Shown one piece after another: positions 27,871 through 64,000 of a stretch of 64,000 nt of DNA. Position 1 is the stretch's first letter; the number at the start of each line of letters is the position of its first letter. The stretch lies in contig CAZIZX010000002.1 of assembly GCA_964544275.1 (NCBI GenBank), positions 2,056-66,055 on the forward strand, given 5' to 3'. Below the pieces are notes generated by a model. The model was not told the origin of the DNA and ran no database searches. It saw only the letters and a list, made by a program, of their open reading frames with translations. The stretch is from an uncultured Gammaproteobacteria bacterium (GTDB taxonomy: Bacteria; Patescibacteriota; Microgenomatia; UBA12405). Made by a program: the position numbers and the translations under genes.

Positions 27871-27945
27871 TGGTGTCCCCACCAGGAATCGAACCTGGAT
27901 TTGTCGCTTAGGAGGCGACTGTTCTATCCATTGAACTATGAGGAC
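27871..27945 (-). tRNA. tRNA-Arg (anticodon CCU), CCA encoded
   Basis: The reverse complement folds as GTCCTCA / TA / GTTC-AATGGATA-GAAC / A / GTCGC-CTCCTAA-GCGAC / AAAT / CCAGG-TTCGATT-CCTGG / TGGGGAC-A-CCA. The 7-bp acceptor stem includes one G-U pair. Anticodon loop is CU-CCU-AA. Confidence 0.8.
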
Positions 27946-28006: not shown

Positions 28007-28080
28007 TCGGGGATACTGGATTCGAACCAGCAACCTCGCGAACCCGAATCGCGCGCGCTAGCCAATTGCGCCAATCCCCG
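28007..28080 (-). tRNA. tRNA-Pro (anticodon CGG), CCA not encoded
   Basis: The reverse complement folds as CGGGGAT / TG / GCGC-AATTGGCTA-GCGC / G / CGCGA-TTCGGGT-TCGCG / AGGTT / GCTGG-TTCGAAT-CCAGT / ATCCCCG-A. Anticodon loop is UU-CGG-GU. Upstream on the minus strand is a candidate promoter, CTGACT-16-TATAAT, at about 28095-28125. Confidence 0.8.
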
Positions 28081-47493: not shown

Positions 47494-47504
47494 ATTTTTT
47501 GAAT

Positions 47505-47600
47505 TAAAAAACCTCGCCTGAAGGAGCGAGGTGTAAATAACAATTTAGCTGTATTTGCCTCGGTAGGTAGCTTCGACCCAGTGGGTACCTACGGTCTTCG
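47505..47600 (-). promoter_or_regulatory. Structured rplJ leader region (two stem-loops), possible L10-L12 autoregulatory/attenuator element
   Basis: On the minus strand: hairpin CCTCGC-n8-GCGAGG (47512-47531) followed by UUUUU, immediately 5' of the rplJ start. A second stem GTAGGTA...TACCTAC at about 47565-47595. Confidence 0.3.
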
Positions 47601-47649
47601 GTTAAAGGATAGGGAGATTATACAGACAAACGGGAAAAGTATCAAGACC

Positions 47650-56672: not shown

Positions 56673-56800
56673 GAAGATATTATACCTTAGGATTTGATTA
56701 TTATCTAAAAAACTGGAGATTGAACTAAATTATTGTTCAACTAAGAAACTGATTTTTGGTGGATTTGATATATTTTTGCCCATTACTTTCTAGTTGACTG

Positions 56801-56848
56801 ACACTATTGGTGGGGTTTATGATGACAATCATCCACTATGATTAGTGG
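56801..56848 (+). promoter_or_regulatory. Tandem NrdR boxes upstream of nrdR-nrdJ
   Basis: Box 2 is ccactatgattagtgg (56833-56848), a 16-bp palindrome CCACTA..TAGTGG matching the acaCwAtATaTwGtgt consensus core. Box 1 is acactattggtggggt (56801-56816), with a good left half-site. The boxes are 32 bp apart centre to centre and 27 bp from the nrdR ATG. Confidence 0.5.
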
Positions 56849-56874: not shown

Positions 56875-57321
56875 ATGTTATGTCCTTATTGTGGTTTTGA
56901 CGAGTCGAATGTACTGGAGAGTCGGGATGCTCAGGAAGGGAAGGCGACCCGAAGGCGGAGGGAATGCCTAAAGTGCAATAAAAGATTTACGACTTATGAA
57001 AAAACGGGAAATATTGAACTGAGGGTAGTCAAAAAGGATGGTCGGATAGAGGATTATTCCAGGGAAAAGCTGGAAAAGTGTTTTGATAAAGCCTGCTGGA
57101 AGTTGTCAACCGAAGAAAGAAGTCGAATGATAGACGAAGTTGAAAAGAGACTTTTGAATTGGGAAAAAGTAGAGATACCCAGCCGGGAGATTGGCCTGAT
57201 GGTGATGGAGATGATTAAAGATATTGATCCGGTGGCTTATATTCGGTTTGCTACGGTTTATCTGGATATCAAATCGATTGAAGATTTCAGTAATTTATTA
57301 GTTGAATTTCAAAACAAATAA
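56875..57321 (+). CDS. nrdR: Transcriptional repressor NrdR (Zn-ribbon + ATP-cone)
   Basis: MLCPYCG..CLKCNKRFTTYE.. is the zinc ribbon. The ATP-cone follows. Stop overlaps the nrdJ start (TAATG). Confidence 0.9.
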   Translation: MLCPYCGFDESNVLESRDAQEGKATRRRRECLKCNKRFTTYEKTGNIELRVVKKDGRIEDYSREKLEKCFDKACWKLSTEERSRMIDEVEKRLLNWEKVEIPSREIGLMVMEMIKDIDPVAYIRFATVYLDIKSIEDFSNLLVEFQNK

Positions 57322-59849
57322 TGACTGACATTAGAATGTTATCAAGCAGGGATAACTTAAAAGAGGGCTTACCCGAGGTAAAGATATCGGAAAATGCCCG
57401 ATATATTGCCGAAAGCAGGTATGCCATGAAAGACAGTGAAGGCAGAGCTACCGAAAAGGTTGACGATATTTATTGGAGGGTAGCCAGTAACATAGCTAAA
57501 GCTGACGGGGTGTTTAATAAGAATGATGGTCAGGTAAATGATTTGGCGGTTAGTTTTTTTGGGTTGATGGCGGAACAAAAATTTTTTCCCAATACACCGT
57601 GTCTGGTGAATGCAGGTAAGGAAAATCAGCAATTATCGGCTTGTTTTGTGCTGCCGATAGAGGATTCAATGAAGTCTATTTTGGAGACGATGTCAGATAT
57701 GGCCATGATTCATAAAAGCGGAGGAGGGACGGGGTTTTCATTTTCGCGACTGAGACCTTATGGGGATTATATAAAAACTAGTGGTGGAACGACGGTGGGT
57801 CCGGTGTCGTTTATGCAGGCTTATAACGATGTGACCTCGCAGATTAAGCAAGGTGGGGTGAGAAGAGGGGCGAATATGGGAATGCTGTCGATTGAACACC
57901 CGGACGTACTGAGGTTTGCGGTGGTCAAATTGGATGAGTATAGCTTGACTAACTTCAACATATCGTTGGCGGTGACTAATAAGTTTATGGAAAAAATTGA
58001 GGGGGACAAAAAGTTTGTGGCGGATGATTCGGTACCGGAGGGGACGGTTGAGTTTATTCGAGAAGCGGAACAGAATCGGGATGTAGATATGAAGTTGAGG
58101 CAAATAGAGGAAGGAGTGGCTAAATTATATGAGTGGGCGGAAGCCAAGAGTGAGGGTGAAGGATATGAGTTGATTAACCCTAGAGATGGAAAAGTGACTA
58201 TGAGGTTGAATGCTTATAAGGTATTTAATTTGATTACCAGGTTGGCCTGGCAATATGGTGATCCGGGATTGGTGTTTATTGACAGGATGAATGACGAAAG
58301 GTCGAATCCGGTGATAAAGTTGGGGAAAATTGAAGCCACAAATCCGTGCGGGGAACAACCGTTGTTGCCTTATGATGCCTGTAATTTGGGTAGTTTAAAC
58401 CTGGCTAAATTTGTAACAGGCGAGGGTAGAGTGGATTGGGATGATTTGGCGAAAACAACCAGGCAGGCAGTTCATTTTTTGGATAATGTGGTGGAGACGA
58501 ATCAGTTTCCGGTGGAGAAGATTGGGGAAACGGTTAGGAAATTTCGGAGGATCGGGTTGGGGGTGATGGGGTTTGCCGATATGCTGTTTAAGTTGGGGGT
58601 TAAATATGATTCAGACGAGGGTTTGGAATGGGCGGGAAAGATAATGAAATTTATCGATGAAAAGGCCAGAGAAGCAACGGCGGAATTAGGAAGGGAAAGA
58701 GGGGTGTTTCCAGCTTGGGAGGAGAGTGTGTTTGCGGGAACTGATTATCGACCAAGAAATATGGCCCTAACGACGATTGCGCCAACCGGAACAATCAGCA
58801 TGATTGCCGATACCAGCAGTGGAATAGAACCGGTTTTTTCGCTGGCTTATCAAAAAAATACGGTTGAAGGCAAGGTACTTTATAATGTCAACCCGGTTCT
58901 GGTGGAAGTGTTGAAGAAGCGAAATTTGTATGACGAAAAGTTAATTGAGAAAATTGTGGCCAATGGTGGGGTGCTGGGTGGGTTAACAGAGGTGCCGGAT
59001 GATATTAAAAAAGTTTTTGTGAGTGCTCTGGAGATTTCACCTGAGTGGCACGTTAAAATTCAGGCGGCTTTTCAGAAACATGTGGACAATGCGGTGTCCA
59101 AGACGATAAATTTCCCCAAAGAAGCGAGAGTAGAAGACGTGCGAGAGGCGTATTTACAAGCGTATACTTTGGGGACTAAAGGTATAACAATATATCGTAC
59201 TGGATCAAGAGAAAAGGAAATTTTGCAGAAAGTGAAAACGGGGGACAAGAACAAGGAAGCAGGGGGTGAGGGTAACGGTAAGTCGAATTGGCATTTGGCT
59301 AAGAAGAAAAGTACGCCGAGTATTGCCAATGGGGTGCGGGTGAAGAAGGGCTGTGACATGGGGAATGTTTACACTTCGGTGTTTTTTGAGGAGGGAGACG
59401 GGCCGGTGGAAGTGTTTGTGACTTTGGGTAAAAGTGGCGGGTATATGGCCGGAGCGGCCGAAGTAACAGGCAGATTGGCTTCGTTGGCATTGAAATATGG
59501 GGCCAGTTTGAATGAGGTAGCTGAAGAAATGGTAGGAATATCATGTGGACAAAGAGTAGGGTTGGGCAGCAATGCGGTTTTGAGTATGTTTGATGCAGTA
59601 GGGAAATCGATTTTGGAGATTTGGAGGGGGGAGCAGTTGGACTTATTTGGCGCAGAGGAGGGAGCGAATAAGGTTAACTCGGCACCAACCCTAAATCTGG
59701 AGGCGGATATGTTATCGGAAATCAGGACCAAATTAGCTGATACTGAGAGTAAATTCAGTTCCTGTCCGGATTGTGGTAGTCCGCTGTATGCGGAAGAGGG
59801 ATGTTTTAAATGTTCAAACAGTTTTTGCGGTTACAGCAAGTGTAGTTAA
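57321..59849 (+). CDS. nrdJ: Class II (adenosylcobalamin-dependent) ribonucleotide reductase NrdJ
   Basis: 842 aa. ..FFPNTPCLVNAG..LSACFVLPIEDSM.., active-site NPCGEQPL, C-terminal Cys cluster CPDCG..CFKCSNSFCGYSKCS. Confidence 0.9.
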   Translation: MTDIRMLSSRDNLKEGLPEVKISENARYIAESRYAMKDSEGRATEKVDDIYWRVASNIAKADGVFNKNDGQVNDLAVSFFGLMAEQKFFPNTPCLVNAGKENQQLSACFVLPIEDSMKSILETMSDMAMIHKSGGGTGFSFSRLRPYGDYIKTSGGTTVGPVSFMQAYNDVTSQIKQGGVRRGANMGMLSIEHPDVLRFAVVKLDEYSLTNFNISLAVTNKFMEKIEGDKKFVADDSVPEGTVEFIREAEQNRDVDMKLRQIEEGVAKLYEWAEAKSEGEGYELINPRDGKVTMRLNAYKVFNLITRLAWQYGDPGLVFIDRMNDERSNPVIKLGKIEATNPCGEQPLLPYDACNLGSLNLAKFVTGEGRVDWDDLAKTTRQAVHFLDNVVETNQFPVEKIGETVRKFRRIGLGVMGFADMLFKLGVKYDSDEGLEWAGKIMKFIDEKAREATAELGRERGVFPAWEESVFAGTDYRPRNMALTTIAPTGTISMIADTSSGIEPVFSLAYQKNTVEGKVLYNVNPVLVEVLKKRNLYDEKLIEKIVANGGVLGGLTEVPDDIKKVFVSALEISPEWHVKIQAAFQKHVDNAVSKTINFPKEARVEDVREAYLQAYTLGTKGITIYRTGSREKEILQKVKTGDKNKEAGGEGNGKSNWHLAKKKSTPSIANGVRVKKGCDMGNVYTSVFFEEGDGPVEVFVTLGKSGGYMAGAAEVTGRLASLALKYGASLNEVAEEMVGISCGQRVGLGSNAVLSMFDAVGKSILEIWRGEQLDLFGAEEGANKVNSAPTLNLEADMLSEIRTKLADTESKFSSCPDCGSPLYAEEGCFKCSNSFCGYSKCS

Positions 59850-59851
59850 TT

Positions 59852-60328
59852 ATGTCGATAACAACTAAAACAGGAGATGGAGGAAAAAGTCGGTGGATGG
59901 GAAGAGAGGAAGACAAAGACGGTGTTTTGCTGGAGGCGATAGGAGTAATAGATGAATTGAAAGCGGTGACCGGGATGATAAAAACGGCAGATATTGATAA
60001 TGAGATGGGGAAAATCGAGGAGGACTTGTGGGGAATAATGGGTGAGTTGAGTTGTGAGGTGGTTTTTGGGGGTTACGATGAGCGAGTTAGGGAGATGGAG
60101 GAGGAAATTGTCAAAATTGAGTCTGGGGTGAGGCCAATTAGTAAATTTGTGGGGTTTGAAAGTGAAGTGGGGGTAAAATTGAATTGGGTTCGGACAGTAG
60201 CCAGAAGGGCGGAAAGAAGAGTGGTGGGTTTGAGTAAGAGGAGGAAAGTTGATCCGAGAGCTTTAGTTTATTTTAATAGATTGTCGGATTATTTGTTTAT
60301 GCTGGGGAGGAGGGCGGAAGAAGATTAA
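59852..60328 (+). CDS. PduO-type ATP:cob(I)alamin adenosyltransferase
   Basis: 158 aa. N-terminal ..ITTKTGDGGKS.. and ..EAIGVIDEL.. helices match Cob_adeno_trans (MMAB/PduO). It sits directly after the AdoCbl-dependent nrdJ. Confidence 0.75.
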   Translation: MSITTKTGDGGKSRWMGREEDKDGVLLEAIGVIDELKAVTGMIKTADIDNEMGKIEEDLWGIMGELSCEVVFGGYDERVREMEEEIVKIESGVRPISKFVGFESEVGVKLNWVRTVARRAERRVVGLSKRRKVDPRALVYFNRLSDYLFMLGRRAEED

Positions 60329-60335
60329 TTAAAAA

Positions 60336-60410
60336 GGGGAAGCGGGGTGAAATTCCCCCACTGTGCCGCAACGGTGATAGTCCGAGGACCAAATCTTTCG
60401 AGCAAAAGAT
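60336..60410 (+). ncRNA. Candidate compact cobalamin (AdoCbl-variant-like) riboswitch element
   Basis: GGGGAAGCGGGGTGAAATTCCCCCACTGTGCCGCAACGGTGATAGTCCGAGGACC carries, in the correct order, GGGAA, GGUGaAAuUCC, CCACUGU and a B12-box-like AGUCCGAGGACC (consensus AGYCMGGAGACC). It is short for a canonical riboswitch and needs a covariance-model check. Confidence 0.35.
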
Positions 60411-61313
60411 ATGTTGGGGCGGGTAGAAGTTGTAAACCAATATTTTGATCCGAGGAAGTACAAAAGAGACGATTTGGCGAGGATTTTGATGGAAAACAGA
60501 GATACATCGGATTTAGCCAAGAGGGTGGCTCCTTATGAATTGAATTTTGATAAATATGGTAATCCGAATTTTCCGGTGAGAAGAGAAACGAGAATTGATT
60601 TGCTGGAAATTGCGGCCTATGAGAGGATGAGAAGTTTGGCTTATGAGGGACAAAAATATATTTTGTGGATTAGTCCACCGTCGGAGGAGGCCGGATATGT
60701 GGAGAATCGGTTCGTGGTGGCGATAGTGAGGCGAGTGGGGGAGGAGGTAGAAATGGAATGTCGGGGAATTTGTGCTAAATATAGTGAAGAGGAGTGTCTG
60801 GAATTGGGTAACAGGATATTTTCCGAATGTTCTTCTTACCATGAATTGGAAAATAGCGACGATTTGAGAAGGACACCGATTCCGGTTGGGGTAGATGAGG
60901 AAAAAGAGAATTGGATCGATGTATTGGAAAAATTTATTGATTTGCCTTCGGTATGGGGGGCAATAAGGCAGGGGATAGATTTGGACAATTTAAGAAAAAT
61001 GAATGAGGTGGCCAGGACAGTGGAAGTGCAATTTAGAGGTATTTTAGAAAGAGGGATAAAAACCCAGGAAGAATCAATAATGATTGGGGCGATGATGGAA
61101 CAGTTTATTGAGAGACGCTTTGGGATTAGTTTGATGGCAGGAGGGGGGCACGGGATGTCCAACAGTGCGGCATTAGGACGGGTTTCGGCCAGAAGCCCGT
61201 TTACGGAGTTGTTTGACAGGAGTAAGGTGATAGGCAGGGAGGGGAAAAAATACTGTGAACTATGTGGTACTTGGTATAGCGGCGAGAAGTGTCCTTATTG
61301 TGGGAAGGGATGA
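60411..61313 (+). CDS. Hypothetical protein with C-terminal CxxC..CxxC zinc ribbon
   Basis: 300 aa. Ends ..KKYCELCGTWYSGEKCPYCGKG. No family recognised. Lies downstream of the candidate riboswitch. The start may be at an internal Met. Confidence 0.5.
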   Translation: MLGRVEVVNQYFDPRKYKRDDLARILMENRDTSDLAKRVAPYELNFDKYGNPNFPVRRETRIDLLEIAAYERMRSLAYEGQKYILWISPPSEEAGYVENRFVVAIVRRVGEEVEMECRGICAKYSEEECLELGNRIFSECSSYHELENSDDLRRTPIPVGVDEEKENWIDVLEKFIDLPSVWGAIRQGIDLDNLRKMNEVARTVEVQFRGILERGIKTQEESIMIGAMMEQFIERRFGISLMAGGGHGMSNSAALGRVSARSPFTELFDRSKVIGREGKKYCELCGTWYSGEKCPYCGKG

Positions 61314-61320
61314 GGGAAAA

Positions 61321-61965
61321 TTATTCGTTGGCTTTGAGCCATTTTTCCCGTTGAAGATAGAGAAAACCCAGAACCAGGAAGATGCCAAGGACAGTGAGAA
61401 GAGACTCGATTTTGTCGAGGCCGTGAGCCAGTTGAACAAAGGCTTCACCAAGCTGAAAACCGATGAAACCCAAAATTGTGGCTCGAAGAAGAAGGGCCAG
61501 AAAAAGCATGGGGTAGAATTTGGCAGGAGGGACTTTGAAGCCCCCGCAGAAGCCGGTAATGAGAGAAACCGGGACAATGGGAATGGTGCAAGCAATGAGA
61601 ATAAAAAGTTCGTCTTTGATGGATTTTTGAAAATCAGTCCTGACTTTTTCGATTAACTTCCAAGAAAGACCAATGTATGGGCCAATTTTGTCGATAATGG
61701 GCTTACCGCCAAAATAGGCAAAGAAGTAGACCAAGCTGGTACCAAGAGTAGCGCCGATAGAATAGGGCAGGGCGACGTGAAGGAAGACGTTCCAGATAGT
61801 TTCAAAAAATGGATGGCCGTGTTCGACCAGGAAAGCGCCCCCGGCCATGGTGATGATGGGAGAAGGGATGGGAACAATGATTTGTTCGATAAAGCCTCCG
61901 GTCAGCATGGCCAGAGGGCCATTAACATGAACCAGTTCAAGGATATGATTGAGGATTTCAGTCAT
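61321..61965 (-). CDS. DedA/TVP38/SNARE-associated family membrane protein
   Basis: Start at MTEILNHILELV (complement of 61963-61965), with TATACT 6 nt upstream. ..GPLAMLTGGFIEQIIVPIPSPIITMAGGAF.. is the DedA signature. The ORF-track start at 62268 adds 100 Pro/Ser-rich residues in-frame that overlap the next gene. Confidence 0.75.
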   Translation of the reverse strand: MTEILNHILELVHVNGPLAMLTGGFIEQIIVPIPSPIITMAGGAFLVEHGHPFFETIWNVFLHVALPYSIGATLGTSLVYFFAYFGGKPIIDKIGPYIGLSWKLIEKVRTDFQKSIKDELFILIACTIPIVPVSLITGFCGGFKVPPAKFYPMLFLALLLRATILGFIGFQLGEAFVQLAHGLDKIESLLTVLGIFLVLGFLYLQREKWLKANE

Positions 61966-61996
61966 GTTTTGAGTATATAGGGGGATTTTCAATATA

Positions 61997-63058
61997 TCAA
62001 TTACCACTCCGAGTGCGATACCAATTGTCGATGCCCTGATGGTTTTTGGTAAAGAAGGCGTAGAAGTCGAGACCGTATTGTCGGCTACCGCCGGAGTAAC
62101 GGGTGGCCGCTTGGATGAGGGCTTCTTTGATGGATGGCTTTTGATCAAAGGATTCCCGGAGATAATCGGCAAAAACCCGGTAGCCGGTTTGGATATTAGT
62201 TTTGGGATCAAAGGGATTTTCTTTGTTCTGGAAATGAAAGGGCATAACCTGCATGAGACCCATAGCACCGGCAGTAGAAGTTAGATCGGGTGTACCCATA
62301 GATTCAAATTGGATAATAATGCCGGTGACGGAGCGGGAATATCCGGATGGAATAGATTTGACAATTTCCTGCCTCCAGGCGAGTACCTGGGGAACAAGGA
62401 ATAGTGGTAGTTGGTCGGTGTCGAGAAGGGGTATTGATTGGCTACCAGGAATTAAAACTGAGGGAGGAGTGGTTTGAGACTGAAAATATTGATTGAGGCT
62501 GATCTCTTGGAACGGTTTACCTGAAGTAGGACAGTAAAGGGTGAGTTTGTCGTGAAGAAGATCAGTGCCAGCGACAAGGTGGGTATAAGTGTATTGGGAA
62601 TTCTCGGGTTGGTGTTGAAGTAATAATGGGGCGGGAGACTGGACGGACAGTTGATGAAGCTGATCGGGGGTGGAGATTTGTCGGGTTTGATAGTCGGCTC
62701 CATAGGAATTAGCTAAGTCTTTGAGGGATTTCAGGTCGGTGCCTGAAGCTTGCCAGTTTTGTCTTGATAAACCCCGGAAGACTACTCCTTTGATGGAGTC
62801 GGGATTATTTTCAATAACCTGATTTTTGATGAGAGTTGAGGCCAGGGCCAACGGTCCGCTGGAGTTGCAGAGGCGGATATCATCTTCACGAAAGTCAGAT
62901 GATTTGATTTGAGGAAAACTGTGATGATGGATTTCGGGAGGAAGTCCTGAGAATGAGTCTGGGGTATGGGGGTGTCGGGTTCTGGGCAAAATCGTGTTTG
63001 CCGCTGTCAGGCCTGAAAGTCGTAGAAAATCCCGACGGGAATAAGTGCGTTCTGACAA
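61997..63058 (-). CDS. Tat-signal secreted lytic transglycosylase (SLT domain)
   Basis: TTG start. Twin-arginine motif SRRDFLRLSGLTAA. C-terminal ..STAGAMGLMQVMPFHFQ..NIQTGYRVFADYL is the SLT catalytic-region pattern. Confidence 0.7.
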   Translation of the reverse strand: MSERTYSRRDFLRLSGLTAANTILPRTRHPHTPDSFSGLPPEIHHHSFPQIKSSDFREDDIRLCNSSGPLALASTLIKNQVIENNPDSIKGVVFRGLSRQNWQASGTDLKSLKDLANSYGADYQTRQISTPDQLHQLSVQSPAPLLLQHQPENSQYTYTHLVAGTDLLHDKLTLYCPTSGKPFQEISLNQYFQSQTTPPSVLIPGSQSIPLLDTDQLPLFLVPQVLAWRQEIVKSIPSGYSRSVTGIIIQFESMGTPDLTSTAGAMGLMQVMPFHFQNKENPFDPKTNIQTGYRVFADYLRESFDQKPSIKEALIQAATRYSGGSRQYGLDFYAFFTKNHQGIDNWYRTRSGN

Positions 63059-63151: not shown

Positions 63152-64000
63152 TTAAATTTTACGGTCGGGAAGGGTGGAGAGTTCTTTTTGCCAATTTGGC
63201 AGTCCGCACCACTGATGTTTTGCTTCGGGGCAAGGTGGAATCAGACCGACCTGGCGGCGGATAGCGCAGGGAGTTGGCTGATTAAAATAAGTACCAAGGA
63301 GAGAGTCGTATTGTTGGAGTTGGCGAAGCATTTCTAAGTTAAGACGCCAAATTTCTTCTTGGGCACGATAACAAGATCTGACAGCAGCAAAATGATAAAG
63401 AGTGCCAATTGGTGCTTTAATTTGCTTGGCAATAAGGGTGTTGTTGGTGGCCAGATATTCTGTTAAGGATGGATCGACACCCATATCTATAAGTTTGGTG
63501 CGGGATTTGGTGGCAAAGTCAGAAAGTCGGTGATATAAGTCTAGGGCTTCTTGATTTTCGGTAATTATGGGAGGGATATAGTAATCGTTTTCTTTGGTCG
63601 GAATGGGAATAGATCTATGGGGAGTGTGGGAAAAGCCGCGGTGGCGTTGTAATTGCGCATCGGCAGAAAGGCTGAGTCGGATAAGGAAGCCAGCGGTGGC
63701 GTTGTTTAGCGTTTGAGAAAATTGATCCAGAACAATCTCACCGTCAACCGAAGCAAGATACGAGTTGTTGGTTGGATTTAGAACACAGTCAAGTGCTTGG
63801 GAATCAGACATTTGAGATGGAGGATAACCCAAATGAAGACGGATGGCATTGGCGATTTGTTGACTAGGTTTGATATCAGGGGTTTCAAGCTTAATATTGC
63901 CACTATTTAGTTGATTAGTAATCACGGATTCAAATGCCACGTGATTCGGGGAGCCGAATCTTTTAATGGCTTTGGTTGCGGGTGAATTTTGAGGCAGGGG
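63152..64000 (-). CDS. Hypothetical protein, partial (N-terminus beyond window end)
   Basis: The reverse frame is open from 64000 down to the stop at 63152, with no stop in 63941-64000. The ORF-track start (GTG at 63940) is probably internal. No family recognised. Confidence 0.45.
   Translation of the reverse strand, partial: PLPQNSPATKAIKRFGSPNHVAFESVITNQLNSGNIKLETPDIKPSQQIANAIRLHLGYPPSQMSDSQALDCVLNPTNNSYLASVDGEIVLDQFSQTLNNATAGFLIRLSLSADAQLQRHRGFSHTPHRSIPIPTKENDYYIPPIITENQEALDLYHRLSDFATKSRTKLIDMGVDPSLTEYLATNNTLIAKQIKAPIGTLYHFAAVRSCYRAQEEIWRLNLEMLRQLQQYDSLLGTYFNQPTPCAIRRQVGLIPPCPEAKHQWCGLPNWQKELSTLPDRKI

Follow-up and report, generated by a model that had tools for sequence, protein, structure and literature searches.

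The locus

The DNA considered here, referred to as the window, is a stretch of 64,000 nucleotides from contig CAZIZX010000002.1 (assembly GCA_964544275.1), and the structure of interest lies in the 82-nt spacer that runs from the stop codon of a pduO-type gene (TAA, 60326-60328) to the ATG (60411) of an open reading frame for a 300-residue protein, hereafter ORF300. An examination of the letters alone, here called the sequence-only reading, had seen in this spacer GGGAA-type, GGUGAAAUUCC, CCACUGU and B12-box-like motifs in this order, and had proposed a cobalamin-riboswitch-like element on the coding strand ahead of ORF300, a frame (60411-61313) with C-terminal CxxC pairs. The motifs are read directly in the sequence (GGGGAAG, GGUGAAAUUCC, CCACUGU, AGUCCGAGGACC), the reading frame and the Rfam placement agree with that position, and Pfam agrees with the neighbours that had been named, NrdR, a class II-type ribonucleotide reductase (RNR) and a PduO-type adenosyltransferase. 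Judged by its full-length match to a family of the cobalamin clan, the segment 60321-60397 is a genuine class-II cobalamin riboswitch aptamer. The riboswitch class is already known and the element itself is ordinary; the point of interest is the gene that it marks, a member of a family that lacks annotation, for which no fold relative could be detected and which has a B12 riboswitch in all the cases examined. The features are the following:

56875-57321, + strand: nrdR (Pfam)
57321-59849, + strand: class II-type RNR of 842 residues, with lgN, barrel and TSCPD domains and a Cys-rich C-terminus (Pfam)
59852-60328, + strand: PduO-type ATP:cob(I)alamin adenosyltransferase (Pfam PF01923, E 7e-33)
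60321-60397, + strand: AdoCbl-II (class II cobalamin) aptamer, RF01689, 52.4 bits against a gathering score of 36.5, E 6.8e-10, model positions 1-81 of 81
60321-60326, + strand: P1 5' strand AAGAUU, which pairs with AAUCUU (60392-60397) through six Watson-Crick pairs in the cmscan alignment
60344-60358, + strand: P4/L4 hairpin GGGG-UGAAAUU-CCCC with a T-loop-type L4, aligned to the RF01689 consensus
60362-60370, + strand: P5/L5, with P5 as UGU-GCC-GCA; L5 (UGCCG, 60364-60368) is the proposed kissing-loop partner of L13
60372-60390, + strand: P6/L6 and J6/3, CGG-UGAUAGU-CCG and then AGGACC, B12-box-like, which fits the consensus ACgGUaAaAGUCcGAGcGCC
60393-60410, + strand: P13/L13 regulatory hairpin AUCUUU-CGAGCA-AAAGAU, with the loop at 60399-60404 and the 3' strand at 60405-60410
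60411-61313, + strand: ORF300, a soluble 300-residue protein with an N-terminal alpha/beta domain, a helical domain and a C-terminal four-Cys zinc ribbon

An AdoCbl-II aptamer between pduO and ORF300

The whole window was scanned with cmscan against 4227 Rfam families, and four matches in all exceeded the gathering score; apart from the spacer element, these are a ribosomal protein L10 leader (47496-47619, minus strand, 61.7 bits) and two tRNA genes (27874-27945 and 28007-28080, both on the minus strand). RF01689 is the family called AdoCbl-II in Rfam 15 and formerly AdoCbl-variant, and RF01482 is the AdoCbl family of that release. The sequence-only reading was thus right to expect a match in the cobalamin clan and mistaken as to the family, for which it had given RF01482; likewise it had the right spacer but the wrong start, since the element begins 8 nt further upstream, inside pduO. 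The B12 box GAGGACC, which it had considered imperfect, is no defect, because it matches the AdoCbl-II consensus AGUCcGAGcGCC. An absent match together with absent pairing had been named as grounds for giving the proposal up; the match lies 16 bits above the threshold, and the pairing covaries over 29 leaders. As labels for the element, both RF00174 (Cobalamin) and RF01482 score below RF01689 within the clan. The FMN riboswitch reaches 14.2 bits against a gathering score of 66.2, a resemblance made up only of common GGGUGAAAUUCC and AGUCCG strings, and a terminator-like site on the minus strand (60362-60341) is an artefact, being the reverse complement of P4.

The alignment, read from a permissive Rfam scan of 60200-60600, gives an aptamer of 77 nt in which a bulged J1/3 (AAUUAAAAA) separates P1 from the junction and a 7-nt loop closes P6. 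The 5' strand of P1 overlaps the stop codon of pduO, so that the intercistronic element begins within the last codons of that gene. The core of the four-way junction is present, with J3/4 GGGAA (GGAAG in the cmscan alignment), P4 closed by a GUGAAAUUC-type loop, P5, and P6 bearing a B12 box of the AGUCCGA type, and it is aligned to the RF01689 consensus with high posterior probability. Compensatory changes are found in P4, P5 and P6 of the relatives: the outer P4 pairs covary among the leaders (column pair 40-54 is AU in 9, UA in 8, CG in 5 and GC in 4), the first P5 pair turns from U-A into A-U in two related loci (L011 and L012), and P6 changes from CGG/CCG to CUG/CAG in a third (L082).

The periphery of the element, which has neither a P2 arm nor a long P6 extension, is that of class II (PMC7367189). 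The natural comparison is with env8HyCbl, an AdoCbl-variant (Cbl-IIa) RNA of solved structure (PDB 4FRN, cited in PMC7367189) and described mechanism (PMC5028336). Like env8HyCbl, the window element is a compact aptamer of about 80 nt lacking those two extensions, in which J3/4 GGGAA is conserved, L4 is of the T-loop type and L6/J6-3 resembles a B12 box; in both, P13 comes immediately 3' of P1 and includes the ribosome-binding region, and the loop of this hairpin is complementary to L5, with an unpaired purine breaking up the kissing helix. The two differ in that the L5/L13 contact of the window (UGCCG with CG-A-GCA) is modelled with one bulged A, whereas that of env8 has two unpaired purines and an A-G pair; in that the ribosome-binding purines are in the 3' strand of P13 instead of in L13; in that the window has no J1/13 linker, P1 and P13 sharing a pyrimidine tract; and in that the window element lies between two genes, the last codons of the upstream one supplying the 5' strand of P1. 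With the Cbl-I riboswitches (RF00174, RF01482) it shares the clan (CL00101), the four-way-junction core and the L5-L13 kissing loop, and Cbl-I-type models score best for the leaders of four family members (L013, L009, L079 and L080), but the window element has neither the P2 arm nor the large P6 extension by which Cbl-I is defined. Cbl-IIa riboswitches combine a bulged J1/3 with a simple P6 loop and prefer hydroxo- or methylcobalamin (PMC7367189). The architecture of the window element, with its bulged J1/3 and plain P6 loop, resembles theirs, and such a likeness would favour these two ligands; selectivity shifts with small peripheral changes and is not reliably predictable (PMC7367189), which means that it is not readable from sequence.

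The P13 hairpin and the predicted kissing loop

In every family leader the aptamer is followed by a short hairpin with the loop CGAGCA, rarely CGUGCA or CGAGUA, and the 3' strand of this hairpin is the purine-rich ribosome-binding region that adjoins the AUG (AAAG, GAAG, GGAG or AGAG across the leaders). The stem covaries freely (CUUU/AAAG, CUUC/GAAG, CUCC/GGAG and others). At least 3 bp flank the loop in 47 of the 53 instances of this aptamer subtype, with 12 stem types among them, and the mean stem of 3.72 bp compares with 2.24 +/- 0.16 after permutation of the 3' flanks (2000 permutations, highest value 2.85). L5 (UGCCG) complements the loop CG-A-GCA through five pairs with one bulged A, so that the window element appears to possess the L5-L13 kissing loop that characterises the class (PMC5028336). 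Two relatives carry changes on both sides: in L004, L5 is UGGCG and the loop CGCUUCA, a C-G having become a G-containing pair, and in L083, L5 is GGCCG and the loop CGAGCC, the predicted U-A having turned into G-C.

These helices were evaluated in a structural alignment of 29 leaders, in which the aptamer, P13 and the kissing loop were counted, the last being outside the alignment model. The paired cells amount to 89.4%, against 79.1 +/- 1.0 in shuffles, a value that includes P13, to which the alignment had been fitted, and is to be read with this caveat for the P13 count; the covariation score is 0.286 against 0.112, and for both quantities none of 500 shuffles reached the observed value. A control in which the 3' partners were slid gave at most 61.8% of cells paired. 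In the kissing-loop helix 98.6% of cells are paired, and two of its five pairs show changes on both sides. Covariation supports the predicted helices and the kissing loop. In four leaders (L007:5940-6000, L010, L020 and L038), two extra hairpins stand between the CGAGCA loop sequence and a distal AAAAG strand before the AUG; the insertions consist of UUCUGA-GGAA-UCAGAA and a 10-bp AU palindrome, and P13 becomes multi-branched in this subgroup.

Conservation across relatives

A word-indexed search gave only four protein clusters and a back-translated locus search with alignment A1 only two genome loci, whereas an exhaustive profile search returned 279 family representatives at E <= 0.001, nearly all of about 300 residues and matched end to end. 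Fourteen lineages found through the protein were examined in their genomic context (the window, L001, L004, L007, L009, L010, L011, L012, L013, L079, L080, L081, L082 and L083), and all 14 have in the leader an element of the cobalamin clan with the same L5/L13 module. Directly upstream of the gene and on its coding strand, nine of them (the window, L001, L004, L007, L011, L012, L013, L082 and L083) have a cobalamin-clan match at or above the Rfam gathering score. A covariance model built from the family leaders recovered the elements of L010 and L081 at 87.7 and 51.9 bits, and L009, L079 and L080 have sub-threshold Rfam matches at the right place; these three bear the hallmark CUGUGCCGCAAC and the CGAGCA-loop hairpin just before the AUG (CGAGAUCA in L079), and their low scores are due to insertions in L4 or P6. 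Leaders at or above the gathering score also precede homologues at nine further loci (L020, L025, L038, L039, L042, L059, L073, L076 and L078). The proposal of the sequence-only reading that an unannotated gene is under B12 control is strongly reinforced by this recurrence.

The leader of L013 scores best as RF00174 and that of L009 as RF01482, and the recruitment of three independent riboswitch classes by one family was considered and rejected: the relatives that score as class I retain the same L5 and L13 sequences, which argues for one riboswitch lineage with peripheral insertions and not for separate recruitments.

The order nrdR-nrdJ-pduO-riboswitch-gene, with pduO directly upstream of the family gene, occurs in at least 11 lineages, often with a SIMPL-domain gene and thyX, tmk, dcd, prs and glyA downstream. 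In three lineages (L083, L004 and L012) nrdD-nrdG replaces nrdJ-pduO while the riboswitch and the gene are kept, so that nrdG-riboswitch-gene is the order common to them. When L083:6377-10837 is set against 56875-61313 of the window, the slot is the same (the L1-L11-nusG-secE genes on one strand, nrdR on the other) with nrdD-nrdG instead of nrdJ-pduO, which looks as though one RNR class had been exchanged for another in situ, with no change to the riboswitch or to the gene behind it. The family gene is without these neighbours in a Candidatus Microgenomates genome, where the riboswitch is still in front of it. Since the riboswitch module stands ahead of the family gene in every lineage examined, the family belongs to the core of the B12 regulon of these Candidate Phyla Radiation (CPR)/Patescibacteria-type bacteria.

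Two further observations belong here. The SIMPL-domain (PF04402) gene begins 7-120 nt past the family member in many lineages (L005-L007, L010, L020, L059, L076, L078 and L081), where it may be co-transcribed and hence co-regulated; in the window a convergent gene comes next instead. One locus (L008, the same as L002; CAZFAI010000054.1), recorded as 'uncultured Gammaproteobacteria bacterium', has the same nrdJ-pduO-riboswitch-gene order as L001, whose longer contig shows the secE-nusG-L11-L1 neighbourhood of the window and of other CPR-type loci; the label of L008 is probably a binning or labelling error.

The same aptamer before other genes

A metagenome scan with a pattern of the aptamer core that did not constrain L5 and one L4 base yielded 64 loci, of which 10 precede family members, including several highly divergent ones. 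The 48 other downstream genes comprise 12 with DUF4430, the transcobalamin-like B12-binding beta domain, one RNR large subunit, and a remainder without a Pfam match at 1e-5. Clustering of the downstream proteins gave a DUF4430-type group of small proteins (n=13) and an unannotated family of 390-510 residues (n=11), and proteins of 428 and 579 residues also recur behind the aptamer subtype (L015-L078; L5 GCCGC, L13 CGAGCA). In this RNA-first sample the subtype behaves like a working B12 riboswitch across these genomes, and the DUF4430-type, 390-510-residue and other groups together may constitute an uncharted B12 regulon. No homologue of the DUF4430-type or other riboswitch-linked groups was found in the window. 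Many leaders of the subtype before other genes (L015, L019, L034, L040, L070 and L075) have a GC-rich hairpin and a U-run shortly after P13, which suggests transcription termination besides, or in place of, translational control.

The protein behind the riboswitch

The body of ORF300 (residues 1-275) matches no Pfam-A or NCBIfam model, and a Pfam check of 80 members of the family gave none either. What is recognisable is the C-terminus (CELCG...CPYCG), where C282, C285, C294 and C297 are conserved in 77-80 of the 80 members in the two CxxC knuckles of a C4 zinc ribbon; the Pfam matches to zinc ribbons are weak (DZR at E 0.016 in the last 23 residues of ORF300, Zn_Ribbon_1 in 11 of the 80). Likewise, only the zinc ribbon came back from a second profile search of an annotated collection, no name for the family was found in public sources, and the long members have no fused domain that would give a function beyond it. 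A profile search found no relative of the family in the PDB. The AlphaFold2 model built from 80 sequences is confident, with a pLDDT of 92.1 and a pTM of 0.81, and has the C-terminal ribbon flexibly attached, and Foldseek gave no fold match with it (best E 0.028 and TM <= 0.24 against the PDB, best E 0.06 against BFVD). The protein is acidic, and no hydrophobic segment like those of transmembrane proteins was found in ORF300.

Within the 80 members, position 247 is occupied by Cys (49) or His (31) and by nothing else, in the context G-x-[CH]-G-x-S-N, and E28, E66, W86, S88, R100, R153 and E230 are near-invariant. Cys117 and Cys121 (the CRGIC motif) were rejected as a metal site, as they are present in 37 and 43 members and so are not conserved. 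The canonical B12-binding domain is of Rossmann type, with the motif DxHxxG...SxL...GG; none of the 80 members has a Pfam match to it (PF02310), and the conserved His/Cys has no preceding Asp.

How the switch would work

On the + strand a promoter-like site lies ahead of nrdR (56794-56823), no promoter- or terminator-like site was found between pduO and ORF300, and the following feature stands just past the ORF300 stop:

61329-61351, + strand: terminator-like hairpin TGGCTTTGAGCCA and then a T-run

All of these are matches in a consensus scan only. Together with the tight spacing of the genes, they indicate that nrdR, nrdJ, pduO, the riboswitch and ORF300 are probably one transcript, in which case the riboswitch would be intercistronic. 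In riboswitches of this type the L5-L13 kissing loop depends on cobalamin, requires that a stem-loop carry L13 and is interrupted by unpaired purines (PMC5028336), and the kissing loop acts through the stabilisation of P13 (PMC10653944). In the window, binding of cobalamin at the four-way junction would let L5 (60364-60368) kiss L13 (60399-60404), and this would lock P13, with the purine stretch before the AUG held in its 3' strand. When B12 is plentiful, translation of ORF300 would then be off, and nrdJ and pduO would remain on although they lie on the same mRNA; in the window and in L001, P1 may act as the ligand-free alternative to P13. Since P13 buries the purine strand before the AUG, translational repression by B12 is the best-supported mechanism, and from the anatomy, the covariation and the published work on env8-type RNAs the riboswitch most likely shuts off the translation of ORF300. 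The account as a whole (a class-II riboswitch, an OFF switch of translation through a kissing loop, and ORF300 as a protein of the B12 regulon with a tentative role in corrinoid handling) is given a probability of roughly three in four.

Several facts weigh against it. The inner helix of the window has only 2 bp; the minimum-free-energy fold is no better than that of shuffled sequences (z = +0.84), for which reason thermodynamic folding was set aside as uninformative, along with a CCAA/UUGG extension around the AUG that appears in that fold, is absent from L001 and was treated as chance. L5 varies little, and part of its invariance was imposed by the search pattern used on the metagenomes, with the consequence that the support for the kissing loop comes down to two compensatory events. 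The 3' strand of P1 and the 5' strand of P13 use one pyrimidine tract (60392-60398) in the window and in L001, so both helices cannot be fully formed as drawn. Finally, we infer ligand binding, ligand identity and the sign of regulation alike.

That sign could be the opposite, if the ligand stabilised P1, drew the pyrimidine tract away from the purines before the AUG, freed the ribosome-binding site and so let B12 induce the protein. The overlap just described means that the two helices compete in the window and in L001, induction by its substrate would suit an enzyme that processes cobalamin, and an activating corrinoid riboswitch exists (cobT of A. halodurans, PMC10653944). That example uses anti-termination, however, and no terminator was found here; moreover, the L5/L13 complementarity and its compensatory changes matter only if P13 is formed in the ligand-bound state, the kissing loop being cobalamin-dependent (PMC5028336), P13 once formed buries the purine strand, and leaders without the overlap show the canonical repressing layout, in L082 as P1, a 9-nt linker and P13, and likewise in other family leaders. 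An ON switch is therefore considered improbable. That the element is a decayed or fortuitous likeness with no regulatory role would agree with the short inner helix and the unremarkable thermodynamic fold, but the E value of the window match (6.8e-10) and compensatory changes that conserve the element across proteins 24-65% identical speak so strongly against this that the Rfam matches and the covariation have effectively refuted it already.

What ORF300 may do

The functions suggested by the sequence-only reading, B12 uptake or salvage and B12 sparing, are still the two live candidates, and the least certain part of the account, which we infer from context, is that ORF300 is a cytosolic corrinoid-handling factor acting before PduO and made only when cobalamin is scarce. 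Such a protein might capture, unload or reduce scavenged cobalamin, with Cys/His 247 as a ligand of cobalt or of another metal. This function is favoured because the riboswitch is present in every lineage of the family that was examined, because pduO is adjacent, and because the invariant Cys/His could ligate cobalt; a riboswitch in every member is typical of genes of B12 homeostasis, while back-up isozymes are riboswitch-controlled only in some genomes. Cytosolic proteins that handle cobalamin and belong to B12 regulons include the CblC/MMACHC-type decyanase/dealkylase and BtuM, in which cobalamin is ligated by Cys. As in those proteins, the gene of ORF300 is predicted to be repressed through a cobalamin riboswitch and lies beside a PduO-type gene, and the protein combines alpha/beta and helical domains with a conserved Cys/His that possibly ligates cobalt; unlike them, it has a C-terminal zinc ribbon, and no similarity to solved structures was detected in its sequence or fold. 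The specific proposal that ORF300 founds a new family of cytosolic cobalamin-handling proteins with an unseen fold, which binds the corrinoid through Cys/His 247 and delivers or prepares scavenged B12 for adenosylation and for loading of the RNR, is put forward tentatively, the odds being somewhat against it.

The main competing explanation keeps the same OFF switch and has ORF300 supply or conserve deoxynucleotides when the adenosylcobalamin-dependent reductase lacks its cofactor, in line with the classic use of cobalamin riboswitches, the repression of B12-independent isozymes (metE, nrdAB/nrdDG). The neighbourhood is always one of deoxynucleotide metabolism (nrdR, nrdJ or nrdDG, thyX, tmk, dcd, a dNK-type gene, DHFR, prs, glyA and pyrF), the slot is kept where nrdD-nrdG replaces nrdJ-pduO (L083, L004 and L012), so that the gene tracks the RNR and not pduO, and the near-invariant Glu, Arg and Ser, together with the Cys/His position, resemble those of an enzyme. 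Set against this, B12-independent isozymes carry the riboswitch only alongside a B12-dependent enzyme, whereas here it is found in all 14 lineages reached through the protein; genomes with nrdDG would gain nothing from a back-up for a B12-dependent reductase unless they also have nrdJ; and no similarity to enzymes of nucleotide metabolism was found with Pfam, the PDB profile search or Foldseek. A B12-sparing function is accordingly regarded as unlikely, if a serious contender. Both conserved upstream neighbours, pduO and nrdG, would be explained if ORF300 were a low-potential electron donor or reductase that serves both PduO (cob(II)alamin to cob(I)alamin) and the activase NrdG ([4Fe-4S] reduction), enzymes that both take electrons from flavodoxin in enterobacteria. 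The four C-terminal Cys, conserved in nearly all members, have a rubredoxin-like spacing (CxxCG...CPxCG), but the two pairs are just 8 residues apart, as is typical of zinc ribbons, and Pfam matches zinc-ribbon families only; neither a flavin nor an Fe-S motif was found, Cys117 and Cys121 lack conservation, and repression by B12 of a reductant for NrdG would be sensible only with NrdJ also present. A shared reductant thus seems a long shot, and corrinoid handling is preferred to both alternatives.

Neighbouring genes

The PduO-type protein scores 104.9 bits against TIGR00636, just under the cut-off of 108.45. The tail of the RNR (59750-59849) is Cys-rich (CPDCGSPLYAEEGCFKCSNSFCGYSKCS) after the TSCPD domain, and the RNR, NrdR and ORF300 all bear zinc-ribbon-like Cys motifs. 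Downstream of ORF300, on the opposite strand, Pfam recognises a VTT/DedA-like protein, an SLT transglycosylase and ThyX. The VTT/DedA-like frame as called mechanically (315 residues, 61321-62268, minus strand) overlaps the SLT-domain frame (61997-63058, minus strand) by about 270 nt; its homologue in L001 has 214 residues, and the true start in the window is probably an internal codon. The ThyX (Thy1)-domain gene encodes 544 residues in L001 (10837-12471, minus strand) against 262 in the window (63152-63940, minus strand), and may be a fusion or duplication in L001.

Implications

In the literature on cobalamin riboswitches in Patescibacteria/CPR and on nrdJ-pduO-riboswitch loci, no prior description of this arrangement was found. 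The locus appears to be a clean natural case of an intercistronic riboswitch, acting on translation only, that controls the last gene of an operon independently of the earlier ones. A riboswitch is a highly specific functional label, and its presence in every lineage examined ties the purpose of the family to B12 status. ORF300 adjoins the only visible B12 enzymes (the class II RNR and PduO) of bacteria that depend wholly on scavenged B12, and its family is a cloneable candidate for a step of B12 trafficking, or of B12-sparing nucleotide metabolism, in CPR/Patescibacteria. If the corrinoid-handling function is true, it would supply a missing step in the use of B12 by these minimal-genome bacteria, which are unable to make it.

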